A DNA stretch of 35,991 nt from UHGV virus genome UHGV-0222783; one strand, written 5' to 3'. The notes under the pieces were generated by a model that saw only the letters and a list, made by a program, of their open reading frames with translations, made no database searches and had not been told where the DNA came from. Below, piece by piece: positions 3,676 through 31,864 of the stretch (position 1 is its first letter; the number at the start of each line of letters is the position of its first letter). Source of the DNA: a virus. The position numbers and the translations under genes were made by a program.

Positions 3676-4008
3676 TCAATCGTAATAAGCTGGAATTGAT
3701 TTTCCGCGTTGCTTCTGGCGGCCTGAGCAAGTCACACCCATTTCACTGCGTGGCTTGCTGTACCATGTGCGCTGATTCTTGCGCTCAATACGTTGCAGGT
3801 TGCTTTCAATCTGTTCGTGGTATTCAGCCAGCACCGTAAGGTCTATCGGATTCAGTGCGCTTTCTACTCGTGATTTCGGTTTGCGATTCAGCGAGAGAAT
3901 AGGGCGGTTAACTGGTTTTGCGCTTACCCCAACCAACAGGGGATTTGCTGCTTTCCATTGAGCCTGTTTCTCTGCGCGACGTTCGCGGCGGCGTGTTTGT
4001 GCATCCAT
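3676..4008 (-). CDS. N: antitermination protein N (lambda N-like, arginine-rich motif)
   Basis: Internal ATG at 4008 gives MDAQTRRRERRAEKQAQWKAANPLLVGVSAKPV..., the lambda N N-terminus with the Arg-rich boxB-binding motif. AGGAG SD upstream. Confidence 0.85.
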   Translation of the reverse strand: MDAQTRRRERRAEKQAQWKAANPLLVGVSAKPVNRPILSLNRKPKSRVESALNPIDLTVLAEYHEQIESNLQRIERKNQRTWYSKPRSEMGVTCSGRQKQRGKSIPAYYD

Positions 4009-4118
4009 CTGGATTCTCCTGTCAGTTAGCTTTGAGTAACGCGCCGTGATGCTTATCTCCACGGTTGCTGTCTTGCAGCTGCATTTCGCGCTACTCAAAG
4101 CCTTCTGCTTTGAATGCT

Positions 4119-4310: not shown

Positions 4311-5663
<1,353 letters not shown>

Positions 5664-5703: not shown

Positions 5704-5782
5704 ATCAAATTAAACCACACCTATGGTGTATGCATTTATTTGCATACATTCAATCAATTGTTATCTAAGGAAATACTTACAT

Positions 5783-6061
5783 ATGCAACTTACAAGTACT
5801 CGCAAGAAAGCGAATGCAATTACAAGCAACATCCTGAATCGAATTGCTGTACGTGGTCAGCGAAAGGTTGCCGACGCGTTAGGGGTTAATGAATCGCAAA
5901 TTTCGCGATGGAAAGACAGCTTCATCCCCAAAATGGGAATGCTTCTGGCTGTTCTTGAATGGGGTGTTGAAGACGAGGAGTTGGCGGAACTGGCTAAGCA
6001 AGTAGCCAGAATGCTGACAAAAGAAAAAGCCCCGAAGAACGGCGAATTCTTCGAGGCCTAA
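5783..6061 (+). CDS. cII: CII-family transcriptional activator
   Basis: ...QRKVADALGVNESQISRWKDSFIPKMGMLLAVLEWGV... aligns with lambda CII (..GVDKSQISRWKRDWIPKFSMLLAVLEWGV..). ATG at 5783. Confidence 0.8.
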   Translation: MQLTSTRKKANAITSNILNRIAVRGQRKVADALGVNESQISRWKDSFIPKMGMLLAVLEWGVEDEELAELAKQVARMLTKEKAPKNGEFFEA

Positions 6062-6257: not shown

Positions 6258-7074
6258 GTTAGCTGATTACAGGCCTCAACTGGAGGTCGTGGAGCATCGC
6301 GTGGCAGAACTCGAAGATGGCTACACTCGGACTGCAAACACACTGTTAGAAGCCGCCATGCTTTCTGGACTTACTCTACATCAGTTACTGATTGTTATGG
6401 CTGTGTGGCGCAAGACATACGGTTACAACAAAAAAATAGATTGGATCGGAAACGAACAGTTCGCTGAACTCACTGGCATGGCACCAACCAAATGCTCTAC
6501 CGCCAAAAACGAGCTTATCAGAATGGGAGTTCTCATTCAGGTGGGGCGTCAAGTTGGTATGAATACAAACATTTCCGAGTGGAAAACGAAAGTTAACGGA
6601 TTCGGTAAAACATTTACCAATTCGGTAAAACAAACCTTCACCAAATCGGTAAAAAGCAATTTACCGAATCAGTCAAACACAAAAGACAATATACAAAAGA
6701 CAATAAATACAAATACCCCCTTACCCCCTAGCGGGGGCGGCGATGGGCAGGTTAAACCTGAACGTCGCAAGGCAGAACGAATCGACTACGAATCCTTCCT
6801 GAACGCCTACAACACCGAAGTCGGTGACAGACTTCCACACGCTGTTGCGGTCAACGAGAAACGAAAACGCCGCCTGAAGAAAATCATCCCGCAACTGAAA
6901 ACGCCAAACGTGGACGGTTTCAGAGCGTATGTCAGGGCGTTTGTGCATCAGGCCAAGCCGTTTTACTTCGGAGACAACGACACTGGCTGGACGGCAGATT
7001 TTGATTACCTGCTGAGGGAAGATTCGTTAACGGGAGTACGGGAAGGGAAGTTTGCAGACAGGGGGATTGCATGA
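6244..7074 (+). CDS. replication initiator, lambda O N-terminal-domain family (P22 gene 18-like)
   Basis: ...[16 protein letters not shown]...[11 protein letters not shown]...NISEW... parallels the lambda O N-domain. Internal iterons. Followed by and overlapping a helicase gene. Confidence 0.8.
6596..6725. repeat. ori-like iteron array plus A/T-rich tract inside the O-like gene
   Basis: Repeated ttcggtaaaa (6601..6610, 6621..6630), atcggtaaaaa (6645..6655) and inverted ttaccgaatc (6661..6670), followed by the A-rich run aaaagacaatatacaaaagacaataaatacaaata. Confidence 0.6.
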
Positions 7075-8447
7075 GACAGGATATCGAAGCGAGCGTTATC
7101 GGTGGCCTGCTGATTGGTGGATTAACTCCAACTGCCAGTGACGTTCTGGCAACGCTTGAGCCGGAAGCATTTTCAATTCCGCTCTACCGGAAAGCCTTTG
7201 AGGTTATCCGCAAGCAGGCGAGAAACAGAAACCTAATCGACGCGCTGATGGTTGCCGAAGCGTGCGGAGAGGAGCATTTCACGTCAATCCTGATGACCAG
7301 CAAAAACTGCCCGAGTGCCGCAAACCTGAAGGGATATGCCGGAATGGTCGCGGATAACTATCACCGCCGTCTGGTGCTGGAAATCATGGATGAAATGCGT
7401 GAACCAATTCAGAGCGGCACCATCGACGTATCGAGTCAGGCGATGGATGAACTTGTAAAGCGTCTCTCAGCCATCAGAAAGCCCCGTGACGAGGTTAAAC
7501 CTGTACGGTTAGGGGAAATCATTACTGACTATACTGACACGCTTGACAGGCGTCTGAGGAACGGAGAAGAGTCAGATACCCTGAAGACCGGAATTGAAGA
7601 ACTTGATGCCATCACCGGAGGGATGAACGCGGAAGACCTGGTGATAATCGCTGCTCGTCCTGGTATGGGGAAAACCGAACTGGCGCTGAAGATTGCCGAA
7701 GGCGTTGCAAGCCGCGTTATTCCTGGTTCTGACGTCCGGCGCGGGGTATTGATTTTCTCAATGGAAATGAGCGCATTGCAGATTGCAGAGCGAAGCATTG
7801 CCAACGCCGGGAGGATGTCGGTTAGCGTACTGCGAAATCCTGCATCGATGGATGACGAGGGCTGGGCACGTGTTGCTAACGGCATGAGTCAGCTTGCAGA
7901 TTTGGATGTATGGGTAGTCGATGCCTCGCGATTATCGGTCGAAGAAATACGCTCAATCGCAGAACGGCACAAACAGGAAAATCCAAACCTCTCACTCATC
8001 ATGGCGGATTATCTTGGCCTGATTGAGAAGCCGAAAGCAGACCGCAACGACCTCGCAATTGCTCACATCTCCGGAAGCCTGAAGGCGATGGCGAAAGACC
8101 TGAAAACACCGGTTATTTCCCTGAGTCAGCTTTCACGCGATGTTGAGAAGCGACCAAACAAACGCCCGACAAACGCAGATTTGCGTGATTCAGGAAGCAT
8201 TGAACAGGACGCAGACTCAATCATCATGCTCTATCGGGAAGCGGTATATGACGAGAACAGTAGCGCCGCGCCATTTGCTGAAATCATCGTGACGAAAAAC
8301 CGTTTTGGCTCACTTGGTACGGTTTACCAGCGGTTCTGCAACGGACACTTTGTTGCATGTGACCAGGATGAAGCCAGACAGATTTGCACAGCATCAAATG
8401 CACCTGCTGCGCGTGGCAGACGATATGCACAAGGGGCTGACGTATGA
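7071..8447 (+). CDS. DnaB-family replicative helicase (P22 gene 12-like)
   Basis: 458 aa. Walker [16 protein letters not shown], DnaB-like C-terminal RecA fold motifs. ATG overlaps the O-like stop. Confidence 0.9.
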
Positions 8448-8519
8448 CCATCTACATCACTGAGCTTGTAACAGGCCTGCTGGTAATCGCAGGCCTTTTT
8501 ATTTGGGGGAGGGTAAATC

Positions 8520-8726
8520 GTGGTTGAGTTGATTTTTTCTGCATTGAGGATTCTCGGTGCTATGTGGATGGTAGCGACGTTCATTGTGGTTGCCAGCAGT
8601 TTTGTCCGGTTGGTAGGCGAAGGTAAAGACCTGGTTGGTGTGCTTTTCGGTAGCATTTTTCTGTGGGTGATTATCGGTGTTATGCCTGTTGTCGTAGCAA
8701 AAGTGGCGTGGCGTTTTGTGAGTTAA
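8520..8726 (+). CDS. small hydrophobic membrane protein (68 aa)
   Basis: ORF track, GTG start. Two predicted transmembrane stretches (MWMVATFIVVASSFV, IFLWVIIGVMPVVVA). Confidence 0.35.
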   Translation: MVELIFSALRILGAMWMVATFIVVASSFVRLVGEGKDLVGVLFGSIFLWVIIGVMPVVVAKVAWRFVS

Positions 8727-8738
8727 TCGGAGGTTAAT

Positions 8739-9155
8739 GTGAGCAAGTGCCAAAAGTGCAATAACACAGGAATGTGTGATAGCGGAGGTTCTACTCCTTG
8801 GGGAGAGCCGATTTTTATTGAATGTGACTGCCTTATGAAAGATGACGAAAGCAGATGCCAGTTTGAAGAGAGTTGGTTACGACGTGGGGGCGAATCTTCA
8901 GACCTTATCCGTTACCCTGAAAATCACCATGAAATTGGCAGTGGTGATATTGGTGGTCAATACGTGATGGACGATGTTCAAGGCCACTGGCAAACGTGGC
9001 AGGCATCGAGAGCAGCTATTGAAATTGAGCTGCAAAAGCCAAAGAAAGGCCCACTTCCCGGTGATTATCACATTGGCTATGACTCAGGTGCAGAATCGCA
9101 ATACGAAAGCGATGTAGAGGCTATCCGCGCCGCTGGAATCAAAGTGAAGGAGTGA
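8739..9155 (+). CDS. hypothetical Cys-rich protein (138 aa), nin-region
   Basis: GTG start after GGAGG SD. N-terminal CxxC...C...CxC cluster (CQKCNNTGMCDSGG...IECDC), acidic C-terminal half. Confidence 0.5.
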   Translation: MSKCQKCNNTGMCDSGGSTPWGEPIFIECDCLMKDDESRCQFEESWLRRGGESSDLIRYPENHHEIGSGDIGGQYVMDDVQGHWQTWQASRAAIEIELQKPKKGPLPGDYHIGYDSGAESQYESDVEAIRAAGIKVKE

Positions 9156-9157
9156 GC

Positions 9158-9343
9158 ATGAGTCGACGAAGTAGCTTTTTGGGGTTTGTAATATTCCTGT
9201 CCTGCACTGGTTACATCGTAATCTGGTCAATTTCGAACATTGACCGTGGCGGGAAATATCTCATTGTAATGTTCTTTCCTTTGTTTCTTGGGTGGTACGC
9301 CGCAAGGTTGCTGGAAGAATGGGGTTACAGGCATAAAAAATAA
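9158..9343 (+). CDS. small membrane protein (61 aa)
   Basis: ATG 9158 after GAAGGAG. Two hydrophobic segments. Confidence 0.4.
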   Translation: MSRRSSFLGFVIFLSCTGYIVIWSISNIDRGGKYLIVMFFPLFLGWYAARLLEEWGYRHKK

Positions 9344-9354
9344 AGGAGTATTCA

Positions 9355-9765
9355 GTGAAGCAAACAATCTTCCTCCGAACTAAGCAACAACAGCAAGCTG
9401 CAATAAATGCCATCCTCGCAACACCACTCGATAAAGACAAGCCAGTCACCATCCGCATTACTGACTACAAGCGCAACCTTGACCAGAACGCAAAATTTCA
9501 CGCGATGGTCGCAGATATCGCTAGGCAAGTTCAGTGGCGCGATAAATGGTTAAAACCAGAACAATGGAAGGTTTTGTTGATCAGCGGTCATGCAGTGGCA
9601 ACAAAACAGGAAGCTGATGTTTTGCCCGGGCTTGAAGGCGAATACGTCAACATTCGCGAAAGCAGCGCGCAGATGAGTGTGAAGCGTATGGCAAGTCTGA
9701 TCGAGTACACAACAGCATGGGCTATTGGTCAGGGTGTCAGATTTACCGACAGGAGGTACGAATGA
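9355..9765 (+). CDS. ninB: NinB (Orf-family recombination mediator)
   Basis: ...[27 protein letters not shown]... parallels lambda NinB. GTG start after AAGGAG. Confidence 0.8.
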
Positions 9766-9938
9766 GGCGACAGCGACGAAGTATCACCGACATCATCTGC
9801 GAAAACTGCAAATACCTTCCAACGAAACGCACCAGAAATAAACGCAAGCCAATCCCAAAAGAATCTGACGTAAAAACCTTCAACTACACGGCTCACCTGT
9901 GGGATATCCGGTTGCTAAGACATCGTGCGAGGAAATGA
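9762..9938 (+). CDS. ninE: NinE
   Basis: [49 protein letters not shown]... matches lambda NinE as recalled. ATG at 9762 after AGGAGG. Confidence 0.8.
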
Positions 9939-10360
9939 CAATGGATTATTCACAGTTAAGTGATTTTGAAATTAACAGACGAGTATGTGAGGCTTTAGAT
10001 ATGGAGGAGCATTTCTTCATACCTGATGACGAAGCAGACTTCGATTCTGAGATCCCCACTGACGAAAGAGGTCCTATTTGGCAGACGCAAAAAAGGGATA
10101 TTAATGGCTTCCGTTCTTCAAACGGAAATTGCTTCAATCCTTGCAATAATCCTGAATACGCGTGGCCAATTATCACTGAAAGCAAAATCAGCACTATGTG
10201 GATGACAGCGGAAAAAGAATGGTGCGCATGGTCAGGAGGTGATTTAGAGGAAGGTTGTTGGGAATGGGAAAATATTCCTGGCTACTACTTCTGCGGTGAA
10301 TCTCCACTCCGCGCCGCCATGATTGTATTTCTCATGATGCAGGACGCCAATAATGCTTAG
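9935..10360 (+). CDS. ninX: NinX-like protein
   Basis: Positional and compositional match to P22-type ninX; ATG 9935 overlaps ninE stop. Confidence 0.55.
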
Positions 10361-11440: not shown

Positions 11441-11625
11441 ACGCCACAATTCAAACGATACCAGAGCTTCTTATCCAGACACGAGGCAATCAGACCGAAG
11501 TGGCAAGGATGCTTTCCTGCGCAAGAGGAACAGTGCTCAAGTACAACCGAGACAGCAAAGGCGAGCGTCACGTAATAGTTAACGGCGTCCTGATGGTCAA
11601 ACAGGGCAAAAGGGGAAGGCCATGA
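11437..11625 (+). CDS. ninH: NinH
   Basis: ...GNQTEVARMLSCARGTVLKYNRD... parallels lambda NinH (GNQTEVARRLKCSRGTVRKY). Confidence 0.75.
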   Translation: MNATIQTIPELLIQTRGNQTEVARMLSCARGTVLKYNRDSKGERHVIVNGVLMVKQGKRGRP

Positions 11626-12245
11626 GACTCGAAAGCGCAGCTAAATTTCATTCGCCAAAAAGCCCGATGATGAGCGACTCACCACGGGCTACGGCTTCTG
11701 ACTCTCTTTCCGGTACTGATGTGATGGCTGCTATGGGGATGGCGCAATCACAAGCCGGATTCGGAATGGCTGCATTCTGTGGTAAGCACGAACTCAGCCA
11801 GAACGACAAACAAAAGGCTATCAACTATCTGATGCAATTTGCACACAAGGTATCGGGGAAATACCGTGGCGTTGCAAAGCTTGAAGGAAATACTAAGGCA
11901 AAGGTACTGCAAGTGCTCGCAACATTCGCTTATGCGGATTATTGCCGTAGTGCCGCGACGCCGGGCGCAAGATGCAGAGATTGCCACGGTACAGGCCGTG
12001 CGGTTGATATAGCCAAAACAGAGCAGTGGGGGAGAGTTGTTGAGAAAGAGTGCGGAAGATGCAAAGGTGTCGGCTATTCAAGAATGCCAGCAAGCGCCGC
12101 ATATCGCGCTGTAACGATGCTAATCCCAAACCTTACTCAACCCACCTGGTCACGCACTGTTAAGCCGCTGTATGACGCTCTGGTGGTGCAATGCCACAAA
12201 GAAGAGTCAATCGCAGACAACATTTTGAATGCGGTCACACGTTAA
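11622..12245 (+). CDS. Q: late antiterminator Q (lambda Q type)
   Basis: 207 aa, MRLESAAKFHSPKSPMMSDSPRATASDSLSGTDVMAAM... with zinc-finger cysteines (CRDCHGTG...CGRCKG), as recalled for lambda Q. Confidence 0.9.
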   Translation: MRLESAAKFHSPKSPMMSDSPRATASDSLSGTDVMAAMGMAQSQAGFGMAAFCGKHELSQNDKQKAINYLMQFAHKVSGKYRGVAKLEGNTKAKVLQVLATFAYADYCRSAATPGARCRDCHGTGRAVDIAKTEQWGRVVEKECGRCKGVGYSRMPASAAYRAVTMLIPNLTQPTWSRTVKPLYDALVVQCHKEESIADNILNAVTR

Positions 12246-12519: not shown

Positions 12520-12594
12520 GGGTCAGTCGTATAAAGGTCATTACGGAAGGCTGTTAACCTTCTTATCGTGGTTCGAGTCCACGCTGTCCCGCCA
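12520..12594 (+). tRNA. tRNA-like gene, anticodon GUU (Asn-like); may be degenerate
   Basis: Hand-folded cloverleaf: acceptor gggtcag/ctgtccc (one T-T mismatch), D-loop with GG, perfect anticodon stem gaagg/ccttc with loop ctGTTaa, T-arm cgtgg-ttcgagt-ccacg, discriminator G, encoded CCA. Parallels E. coli tRNA-Asn loops. Confidence 0.5.
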
Positions 12595-12599
12595 AATAT

Positions 12600-12675
12600 G
12601 CTGGTTTAGCTCCAATGGTAGAGCGGTCGCCTTGTAAGCGAATGGGTAGCGGTTCAAGTCCGTTAACCAGCACCA
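12600..12675 (+). tRNA. tRNA gene, anticodon UGU (Thr)
   Basis: Perfect 7-bp acceptor gctggtt/aaccagc, U8, D-stem gctc/gagc with GG in loop, anticodon loop cTTGTaa, T-arm agcgg-ttcaagt-ccgtt, discriminator A, encoded CCA. Confidence 0.65.
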
Positions 12676-12917: not shown

Positions 12918-13241
12918 ATGAAGATGCCAGAAAAACATGACCTGTTAGCCGCCATTCTCGCGGCAAAGGAACAAGGCATCGGGGCAATCCTTGCGTTTGC
13001 AATGGCGTACCTTCGCGGCAGATATAATGGCGGTGCGTTTACAAAAACAGTAATCGACGCAACGATGTGCGCCATTATCGCCTGGTTCATTCGTGACCTT
13101 CTCGACTTCGCCGGACTAAGTAGCAATCTCGCTTATATAACGAGCGTGTTCATCGGCTACATCGGCACTGACTCGATAGGTTCGCTTATCAAACGCTTCG
13201 CTGCTAAAAAAGCCGGAGTAGAAGATGGTGGAAATCAATAA
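12918..13241 (+). CDS. S: class I holin S (lambda S107/S105 type, dual-start MKM)
   Basis: [45 protein letters not shown]... matches lambda S as recalled. Dual-start motif Met1-Lys2-Met3. Confidence 0.95.
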
Positions 13242-13701
13242 TCAACGTAAGGCGTTCCTCGATATGCTGGCGTGGTCAGAGGGAACTGATAACGGACGTC
13301 AGAAAACCAGAAATCATGGTTATGACGTCATTGTTGGCGGAGAGCTATTCACTGATTACTCCGATCACCCTCGCAAACTTGTCACGCTAAACCCCAAACT
13401 CAAATCAACAGCAGCCGGACGTTACCAGCTTCTTTCCCGTTGGTGGGATGCCTATCGTAAGCAGCTTGGCCTGAAAGACTTCTCTCCTAAAAGCCAGGAT
13501 GCTGTTGCATTGCAGCAGATTAAGGAGCGTGGCGCTTTGCCGATGATTGATCGCGGTGATATCCGTCAGGCTATCGACCGTTGCAGCAATATCTGGGCTT
13601 CACTGCCGGGCGCTGGTTATGGTCAGTTCGAGCATAAGGCTGACAGCCTGATTGCAAAATTCAAAGAGGCTGGCGGAACGGTCAGAGAGATTGAGGTATG
13701 A
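13225..13701 (+). CDS. R: endolysin R (lytic transglycosylase, lambda R type)
   Basis: 158 aa, [45 protein letters not shown]... matches lambda R as recalled. Confidence 0.95.
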
Positions 13702-14135
13702 GCAGAGTAACCGCGATTATCTCCGCTCTGGTTATTTGCTTCATCGTCTGCCTGTCATGGGCTGTTAATCATTACCGTGATAACGCCATCGCCTACAAAG
13801 AACAGCGTGATAAGGCCGCATCCACAATTGCTGACATGCAGAAGCGTCAACGTGATGTAGCAGAACTCGACGCCAGATACACAAAGGAGCTTGCTGATGC
13901 TAACGCGACTATCGAAAGTCTCCGTGCTGATGTTTCTGCTGGGCGTAAGCGCCTGCAAGTCGCCGCCACCTGTGCAAAGTCAACGACCGGAGCCAGCAGC
14001 ATGGGCGATGGAGAAAGCCCAAGACTTACAGCAGATGCTGAACTCAATTATTACCGTCTCCGAAGTGGAATCGACAGGATAACCGCGCAGGTTAACTACC
14101 TGCAGGAATACATCAGGACGCAATGCCTTCGATGA
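13698..14135 (+). CDS. Rz: spanin inner-membrane subunit Rz
   Basis: N-terminal TM segment, coiled-coil body; similar to lambda Rz ([14 protein letters not shown]...[10 protein letters not shown]). Confidence 0.85.
13897..14082 (+). CDS. Rz1: spanin outer-membrane lipoprotein Rz1 (embedded in Rz, +1 frame)
   Basis: ATG 13897 after AAGGAG. Signal peptide with lipobox ...LLGVSAC, Pro-rich mature part ([13 protein letters not shown]); fully nested in Rz. Confidence 0.8.
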
Positions 14136-31632: not shown

Positions 31633-31864
31633 TTCGCTTGGATGCAGTAGTCAAAGAGATTGCGATTACCATTTTAAGACCAAATTTTGTTCATGGCGAA
31701 TCATTTGGCACGAACGAAAAATTGAGAAGAGAAAGAGTATTCAGTGGCAAGCGCACGTTTTCAGAAGTGATGCTTGATGCGGCAAAGAAATCAAAACAGT
31801 GAAGCCCCAACTGCTGGAACAGTCAGGGCTTCGGTTGTCGGTAAATCCGTGGAGAAAAACCAAC

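Follow-up and report, generated by a model that had tools for sequence, protein, structure and literature searches.

The stretch of DNA analyzed here (the window; 35,991 nucleotides (nt) of the UHGV virus genome UHGV-0222783) belongs to the P22-like lambdoid prophages (Lederbergvirus) of Escherichia coli, and our subject is the interval between its replicative helicase gene and ninB. The upstream boundary of this interval is a gene for a DnaB-type helicase of the P22 gene 12 type (7071..8447, + strand), which is named 'replicative DNA helicase' (WP_001248388.1) by RefSeq in identical prophages. The downstream boundary is ninB (9355..9765, +), which matches the Pfam NinB model with an E value of 5e-53, shows a ratio of non-synonymous to synonymous polymorphism (pN/pS) of 0.09, and starts at GTG 9355, preceded by AAGGAG. 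Between the two lie four small open reading frames (ORFs), all on the + strand: ninA (27 codons, 8444..8527), orf68 (68 amino acids (aa), GTG start, 8520..8726), orf138 (GTG start, 8739..9155), and orf61 (61 aa, ATG start, 9158..9343), the last of which ends 11 nt before ninB. The ORFs are chained: the ATGA at 8444-8447 holds both the stop of the helicase gene and the start of ninA, the ninA stop (8525-8527) overlaps the start of orf68, and the gaps are 12 nt between orf68 and orf138 and 2 nt between orf138 and orf61. A strong Shine-Dalgarno sequence lies 5-6 nt before the start of each of orf68, orf138, and orf61. The ORF list and the sequence confirm the coordinates, sizes, strand, and tight packing that a previous, sequence-only reading of the window had assigned to the four ORFs. 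An antisense ORF of 110 aa (8324-8656, -) was taken to be spurious, the selection signal being located in the + strand frames. The four-ORF interval is 99.8-99.9% identical to that of phage phiv205-1 and of prophages of strains APEC O1, ExPEC XM, ATCC 11775, and others, and the whole arrangement is present in 57 complete E. coli genomes.

As judged by sequence, the 27-codon ORF that opens the interval is ninA and corresponds base for base to the tR2 block of lambda and P22. The sequence-only reading had described it as a possible hydrophobic peptide and had held that none of the four ORFs matches a recognizable nin gene. This remains true of orf68, orf138, and orf61, which match none of the Pfam and NCBIfam nin models (NinB, NinD, NinE, NinF, NinG, NinH, NinX, NinY, and NinZ; the match of NinB to its own model, given above, was the control), but it does not hold for the first ORF, which is the ninA of P22, HK620, HK630, Lahn2, and CUS-3, that is, the kind of match to a known nin protein that the reading itself had set against its proposal. 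The reading also overlooked the intrinsic terminator inside this ORF. The block that runs from the ATGA up to the Shine-Dalgarno sequence can be aligned with lambda ren-tR2-ninB, with P22 12-ninA-ninB, and with HK75; the lambda match (40567-40634) is 95.6% identical, and the block is carried by 416 phage records. In the annotation of P22, ninA (81 nt) contains a terminator 'similar to phage lambda', NinA or tR2 labels are found in HK620, HK630, Lahn2, and CUS-3, and a 'terminator' is annotated at tR2 in HK75, P22, HK620, Sf6, and Lahn2. The ninA product matches phrog_5907 (E 1e-18).

The terminator itself is of the lambda tR2 type (8473..8504, +) and consists of an 8-bp stem with six G-C pairs and an 8-nt loop (hairpin, 8473-8496), followed by TTTTTATTT. 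The hairpin with its run of T residues (T-run) is the sole terminator-like site that a terminator scan finds in 8000-10000; the minimum free energy of the RNA fold is -16 kcal/mol, with a z-score against shuffled sequences of only -1.6. The Shine-Dalgarno sequence GGGGGAGGG (8505..8513, +) comes next and serves the first gene after tR2, which is orf68 in the window and ninB in lambda and P22. Lambda, P22, and HK620 are like the window in the place of this block (downstream of the replication genes and ahead of the first nin gene), the ATGA coupling, the hairpin, the T-run, the Shine-Dalgarno sequence, and the peptide MTIYITEL(V/I)TGLLVIAGLFIWG. The window differs from them in the last four codons of ninA, in its length (27 codons compared to 26), and in the downstream partner, the GTG of orf68 replacing the ATGA of ninB.

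In an alignment of the window, lambda, P22, HK75, and HK022, no differences are seen in the hairpin, the T-run, or GGGGGAG. HK022 retains the hairpin, with the N-terminus of ninA replaced by unrelated sequence; HK97, HK446, and CUS-3 retain the N-terminus, with the hairpin swapped for another one (GGGGCTA...TAGCCCC) that has its own T-run and gives a different C-terminal half. Because the hairpin is kept without the ninA N-terminus in one phage and the N-terminus is kept with another hairpin and T-run in the others, the terminator is the constant feature. The hydrophobic stretch GLLVIAGLFIW is simply what the hairpin GGCCTGCTGGTAATCGCAGGCC and the T-run encode in this frame, and its hydrophobic character is thus a by-product. 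We conclude that selection acts mainly on the hairpin, the T-run, and the Shine-Dalgarno sequence that follows, and not on a membrane peptide.

The reading frame of ninA is nevertheless maintained to some extent. The frame is intact in 32 of the 34 alleles, 16 of 34 distinct single-base variants are synonymous (26% expected), an excess observed only in frame 0 (p=0.0075), and in all variants compared, the ninA start overlaps the upstream stop and the ninA stop overlaps the next start. The weak coding constraint together with these overlaps suggests that ninA is also preserved as a translational bridge over the terminator. A smaller possibility is that this bridge is actually translated, in which case ribosomes leaving the helicase gene would tune the read-through of tR2 and then start again on the gene that follows. 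This very site was studied by Li et al., who placed tR2 30 bp past the NinA AUG and found the NinA start site to be active in a plasmid system and 'not weak', its translation cutting termination by only about 10% (PMC4824070). More generally, nin regions have been typified by a 'chain of interlinked genes' (PMC8022706). The HK97-type ninA of HK446, CUS-3, and Salmonella phage 29485 (L155-L157, 401-499) has 32 codons and overlaps both neighboring genes. In another locus (L150, 2551-2587), a ninA-like start, MTAYLTECIVGL, lies downstream of a divergent orf61 and not directly after the helicase gene; compared to the ninA of the window, it carries five synonymous third-position changes in 12 codons, and the contig stops before the hairpin.

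The content of the slot behind tR2 changes from phage to phage. Among 107 fetched loci that hold both tR2 and ninB, we found 35 layouts that differ in length or content. These include orf68 alone, as in HK75 (13 loci), orf68 with an orf138-type gene and without orf61, an orf138-type gene with orf61 and without orf68, and all three genes together; lambda and P22 have nothing in the slot. Other small membrane proteins occur in the slot as well, namely, a 60-aa protein (MVNAFICSLFLVAIFHGFLLMM...) in 18 loci and, in 5 loci, a 108-aa protein that has an N-terminal helix, and such proteins often fill the slot where orf68 is absent (for example, in L119 and L102). Since orf68, orf138, and orf61 assort independently across the loci, they are separate cassettes and not a system; the word cluster, used in the sequence-only reading, implies a unit and is, to that extent, an overstatement. 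The three genes behind the terminator are independently mobile, each has its own ribosome-binding site, and each is under purifying selection. A lambdoid nin region with the usual mosaic character has been described previously for these phages (PMC2629481).

The first of the three cassettes, orf68, is, on the evidence of its sequence, a real gene for a two-helix membrane protein, presumably, of the inner membrane. The protein consists of two hydrophobic spans joined by the loop RLVGEGKD, and its grand average of hydropathy (GRAVY) is 1.60. It matches phrog_1165 end to end (E 6.7e-36; residues 1-68 on profile positions 1-68 of 68), and a search for homologs found 193 protein clusters; nearly all of the 120 listed are 68 aa long and 85-97% identical to orf68. 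All 42 alleles are intact, pN/pS is 0.21 compared to 0.57 and 0.88 in the other two frames, and the excess of synonymous changes among single-base variants is confined to the called frame (p=0.0013). In the alignment, the RLVGEGKD loop and the AWRFVS end are invariant, and the helices vary conservatively. The gene is found in 448 of the 5426 complete E. coli genomes, where it is annotated as 'hypothetical protein'. Its equivalent is HK75 gene 43 (HK75_43; phrog_1165), and a hypothetical 68-aa protein occupies the same place, directly after tR2, in HK75, HK022, mEp235, and Shiga toxin (Stx) phages, the difference being allelic variation only, within the range of identity given above.

The second cassette, orf138, is a soluble acidic protein that combines a mobile four-cysteine (Cys4) module (residues 1-35) with a helical domain of the phrog_343/PF26207 type (residues 36-138), which belongs to a mosaic class of early-region proteins. 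Composition bears out both the cysteine-rich N-terminus and the acidity that the sequence-only reading had noticed in this protein, as it does the membrane character of orf68 and orf61: the orf138 protein has 25 acidic (D+E) and 14 basic (K+R) residues, six cysteines, and a GRAVY of -0.82. It matches phrog_343 over residues 27-138 (E 3.2e-31), and all 120 homologs listed carry a precomputed PF26207 tag; no Pfam model matched the protein at E<=1, including those of Ead_Ea22 (PF13935) and DUF551 (PF04448), and a literature search for PF26207 found no mention of the family. The homologs are themselves mosaic, with a conserved core (SRxQFEESWLRRGG...WQTWQASRAAIEIEL, or, in short, SRxQFE...WQxWQASRAAIE; pN/pS 0.22), a variable middle, and a conserved end, AIRAAG-KVKE (AGxKVK; ...AGIKVKE in the window copy). 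In the window, the KVKE tail (9141-9155) is encoded by AAAGTGAAGGAGTGA, which includes the Shine-Dalgarno sequence of the next gene, so the conservation of the tail may in part be a junction signal at the DNA level. The WQxWQASRAA helix of orf138 (residues 65-94) has matches in two very large proteins, in 9 separate stretches of P0294 (1929 aa) and in 7 of P0357 (1194 aa), which suggests a repeated form of this motif.

The start of orf138 is best placed at GTG 8739 because the 35 codons upstream of the RefSeq start encode the widely conserved Cys4 module and GGAGG (8729-8733, +) lies 5 nt upstream. RefSeq starts the gene at ATG 8835, which gives a protein of 106 aa and removes the module; the copy of strain E10 carries a RefSeq frameshift flag and the name 'phiTE_015 family protein', which could not be reproduced with NCBIfam release 20. 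In phiv205-1, orf138 is annotated as 'Sf6 gene 48'-like, and a homologous gene of phage Gally is annotated as 'similar to P22 EaD'. The mosaic make-up of orf138 is shared by the Sf6 gene 48/phrog_343/PF26207 proteins and by the Ead/Ea22-DUF551 class; the Ead/Ea22 and DUF551 domains, however, are found only on proteins that share the Cys4 module of orf138, and orf138 itself matches neither model. Most members of the orf138 family at this locus are 87-106 aa long and lack the module, which is present in only 13 of the fetched loci.

The Cys4 module (8748..8831, +; C4, C7, C29, and C31) follows the pattern C-x2-C-x2-TG-x2-DSGG-x2-PWGEPI-x3-C-x-C. An exhaustive profile search locates it in over 100 protein clusters at 50% identity, at differing positions and in combination with partner domains that include Ead_Ea22, DUF551, and a MazG-like pyrophosphohydrolase. 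Across 28 diverse aligned copies, C4, C7, D14, G16, W21, G22, C29, and C31 do not vary, whereas Cys13 of the window copy is an extra, non-conserved residue. This mobile element of about 30 aa (among proteins P0265-P0391) has no model in the Pfam copy searched, and it occurs twice in P0348. The AlphaFold2 (AF2) model of the module, with a predicted local distance difference test (pLDDT) score of 81, is a beta-hairpin flanked by two cysteine pairs, in keeping with a putative zinc knuckle, and the module probably binds zinc. The DnaJ CxxCxGxG zinc finger is similar in that the opening half of the module (C-Q-K-C-N-N-T-G) looks like one CxxCxGxG unit, there are four conserved cysteines, and a beta-hairpin is predicted; it differs in that the second cysteine pair of the module is CxC instead of CxxC, and the Pfam DnaJ_CXXCXGXG model does not match. 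An assignment to the DnaJ fingers was therefore not adopted, the best that could be found being PDB 2ctt at E 4.3, with no Pfam or fold match.

The third cassette, orf61, is a real gene that RefSeq omits. It encodes a two-helix membrane protein with the N-terminus MSRRSS, the loop SNIDRGG, and the C-terminus EEWGYRHKK, and is preceded, 5 nt upstream of its start, by the Shine-Dalgarno sequence AAGGAG (9147-9152, +). Given the two hydrophobic spans, the RR at the N-terminus, and the RHKK at the C-terminus, the positive-inside rule would place both termini in the cytoplasm, presumably, with the protein in the inner membrane. The frame is intact in 15 of 16 alleles. A 61-aa homolog with 72% identity, located directly after a DnaB gene and behind GGAGGAG, yields a pN/pS of 0.32 compared to 0.79 and 1.67 in the other frames, and when variants are pooled, the synonymous excess is observed in frame 0 only (p=0.00011). 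The gene is present in 195 of the 5426 complete E. coli genomes and is unannotated by RefSeq/PGAP in all eight of those listed; elsewhere, it was found in 4 protein clusters, 4 phage records (tblastn), and 1 locus in species-representative genomes, and in metagenomes, in 27 loci, the identity being 95% or higher in nearly all of them. The only informative distant relatives are L150/L151 (72%) and L184, in which the 5' end is replaced. In L184 (1160-1386, a human gut metagenome contig), the 5' end of orf61 is swapped for unrelated sequence and the original ATG is out of frame; an internal ATG restores MTTRLLGFVIFL..., and a basic residue is retained before the first helix. A relationship between orf61 and orf68 was rejected (hhalign probability 0.4%), and a likeness to GhoT was dropped, there being no Pfam match in its support. 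No family in Pfam, PHROG, NCBIfam, or PADLOC includes orf61.

The searches for known functions and regulatory elements in the interval were, for the most part, negative. Neither Pfam nor NCBIfam contains a family that matches one of the four proteins, and PHROGs offers only families of 'unknown function', and none for orf61. None of the four proteins matches a PADLOC defense family at E<=1, and there is no match to holin, pinholin, type I toxin, or GhoT-like toxin families in Pfam, PHROG, or NCBIfam. These family searches thus lend no support to the toxins or host-modulating factors suggested by the sequence-only reading. A simple consensus scan of 8000-10000 on both strands detected no sigma-70-like promoter sites, and no Rfam family was found within the four-ORF interval.

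The surroundings are those of a lambdoid early region. Encoded in the window are an N antiterminator of the lambda type (3676-4098, -; Pfam N36, E 3e-26) and homologs of a cI-type repressor (4712-5344, -), CII (5723-6061), and a Q-type antiterminator (11622-12245). Residues 113-152 of the Q-type antiterminator give a weak match of the DnaJ CxxCxGxG type (E 1e-4, below the Pfam cut-off); this cysteine-rich stretch is the second such element in the operon, and its sequence is unrelated to the orf138 module. Two tRNA genes (12520-12672, +) lie between the Q-type antiterminator and the next late-region ORFs, and the sar antisense RNA of the P22 immI region was detected at 31798-31864 (-; 84 bits).

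Probably, the interval between the helicase gene and ninB is a variable accessory-gene slot of a P22-like E. coli prophage, within its early-right (pR) operon; the slot opens with ninA/tR2 and continues with three separate cassettes. The anatomy of the slot, the coding status of its ORFs, their mosaicism, and the identity of the terminator are direct observations. Several points weigh against this interpretation. Pfam, PHROGs, NCBIfam, and PADLOC together provide no functional name for the four proteins. The close alleles of orf61, taken by themselves, look neutral (pN/pS 1.4; 6 synonymous and 32 non-synonymous among 38 changes), so that the evidence of selection on this gene leans on one divergent homolog. 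The synonymous excess in ninA may stem in part from constraint on the hairpin because transitions that preserve wobble pairing coincide with third codon positions. Sequence profiles run against PDB found no match beyond the non-significant DnaJ hit, and for the Cys4 module, a Foldseek comparison of the model with PDB gave no meaningful match (best E 1.7); the AF2 model of the whole orf138 protein is poor and mostly helical (pLDDT 55), too weak for fold comparison. Finally, the simple consensus scan may miss weak or non-sigma-70 promoters, and to that extent the genes may be expressed in the lysogen.

In lambda, tR2 is the textbook terminator that is removed by nin deletions. It terminates transcription in vivo unless N is present (PMC4824070; PMC7084815), and without N, the polymerase that has passed tR1 halts at tR2 (PMC7084815). 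Given a lambda-type N gene in the window and the lack of any promoter-like site in 8000-10000, expression of the three genes is expected only after N-modified read-through of tR2. Under this scheme, the N-modified polymerase would read through tR2, and orf68, orf138, and orf61 would then be expressed in the delayed-early lytic phase and would be silent in the lysogen; we infer this lytic-only timing by analogy with lambda and P22. With low confidence, we propose that the three genes may be dispensable host-modulating factors of lytic growth. The orf68 and orf61 proteins could bind to, or act on, host inner-membrane proteins, and orf138 could be a zinc-knuckle adaptor that binds a host or phage protein.

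A more specific version of this proposal, which we consider rather doubtful, is that the slot behind tR2 is a hotspot for unrelated, lytic-only inner-membrane proteins (the orf68, orf61, 60-aa, and 108-aa families) aimed at the membrane machinery of the host; orf61 would then represent a new effector family. The targets might include membrane-based abortive-infection effectors, which would be blocked, or the DNA entry of competing phages, which would likewise be prevented. By size and two-helix hairpin, orf68 and orf61 are reminiscent of T4 Imm, HK97 gp15, and the phage 21 pinholin, a functional analogy only, unaccompanied by similarity in sequence or profile. HK97 gp15, unlike the genes behind tR2, acts from the prophage, and the pinholin belongs to a late lysis cassette.

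Some of the same features could be read differently. Pinholins and toxins such as GhoT share a general shape, being small proteins with two hydrophobic helices and charged ends, and orf68 and orf61 fit this description at about 60-70 aa; moreover, several unrelated small membrane proteins recur in the slot. One could thus suspect membrane-damaging proteins, similar to type I toxins or to holins and antiholins, that kill or permeabilize the cell or time its lysis. We consider this unlikely given that the families of holins and toxins yield no match in Pfam, PHROG, or NCBIfam, that neither strand has a promoter-like site for an antisense antitoxin RNA and the interval has no Rfam match, and that ORFs sized and ordered like a lysis cassette (by size and order alone) sit after Q, at 12918-14135. 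A lethal product of a delayed-early operon would, furthermore, shorten replication, and both genes are stably kept, with intact frames, in hundreds of genomes. The suggestion that orf68, orf138, and orf61 form one system, for example, a membrane sensor or anchor with a zinc-finger effector that serves defense, counter-defense, or superinfection exclusion, draws on their adjacency on the same strand and tight packing in this phage and in the 57 complete E. coli genomes. Modules for defense or exclusion are often found in the accessory slots of temperate phages, and genes of this kind normally act in the lysogen; the genes behind tR2, however, have no promoter-like site and so would be silent there. 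As every partial combination occurs across the 107 loci, orf61 can directly follow the helicase gene without the other two, and PADLOC gives no match, a single system appears very unlikely.

The two other alternatives concern the reality of the small proteins. That NinA is a functional membrane micro-protein of 27 residues, with the terminator secondary, would accord with the frame-specific synonymous excess and the 32 of 34 intact alleles, with the retention of the ORF alongside both hairpin types, always overlapping the stop and start of its neighbors, and with the divergent L150 start, whose five changes are synonymous, as well as with the activity of the start site. Yet residues 11-27 change wholly upon hairpin exchange (GLLVIAGLFIWGRVNRG compared to GAIYTVALFYWIKNEGDSDGHR), HK022 keeps the hairpin without the N-terminal half, the invariant columns are those of the hairpin, the T-run, and the Shine-Dalgarno sequence and not codons, and on transcripts that end at tR2 the ORF has no stop codon (PMC4824070), so that we regard such a micro-protein as quite improbable. 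Finally, one or more of the small ORFs might be a chance reading frame in a non-coding spacer, and it is orf61, with no family, no RefSeq annotation in the eight genomes listed, and no purifying selection among its close alleles alone, that invites the suspicion. However, each ORF has a strong Shine-Dalgarno sequence at the correct spacing, the lengths of 68 and 61 aa are kept across divergence, the synonymous excess is frame-specific, and the Cys4 module recurs, conserved, in hundreds of unrelated proteins, which makes a chance origin extremely unlikely.

What we regard as likely, then, is the accessory slot with independent cassettes behind tR2, and, as such, the interval is an ordinary mosaic start of a lambdoid nin region. 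All of its parts are already in public records, as NinA/tR2, as phrog_1165, as phrog_343/PF26207, and as hypothetical proteins in phiv205-1 and vB_EcoP-611R6. The value of the analysis lies mainly in annotation: the putative 27-aa peptide becomes ninA/tR2, the start of orf138 moves to GTG 8739, orf61 is added as a gene that RefSeq omits, and a mobile Cys4 module emerges that has so far not been modeled. If it is true that the small membrane proteins are lytic-phase effectors directed at the host, this slot would be a convenient place to seek more of them.

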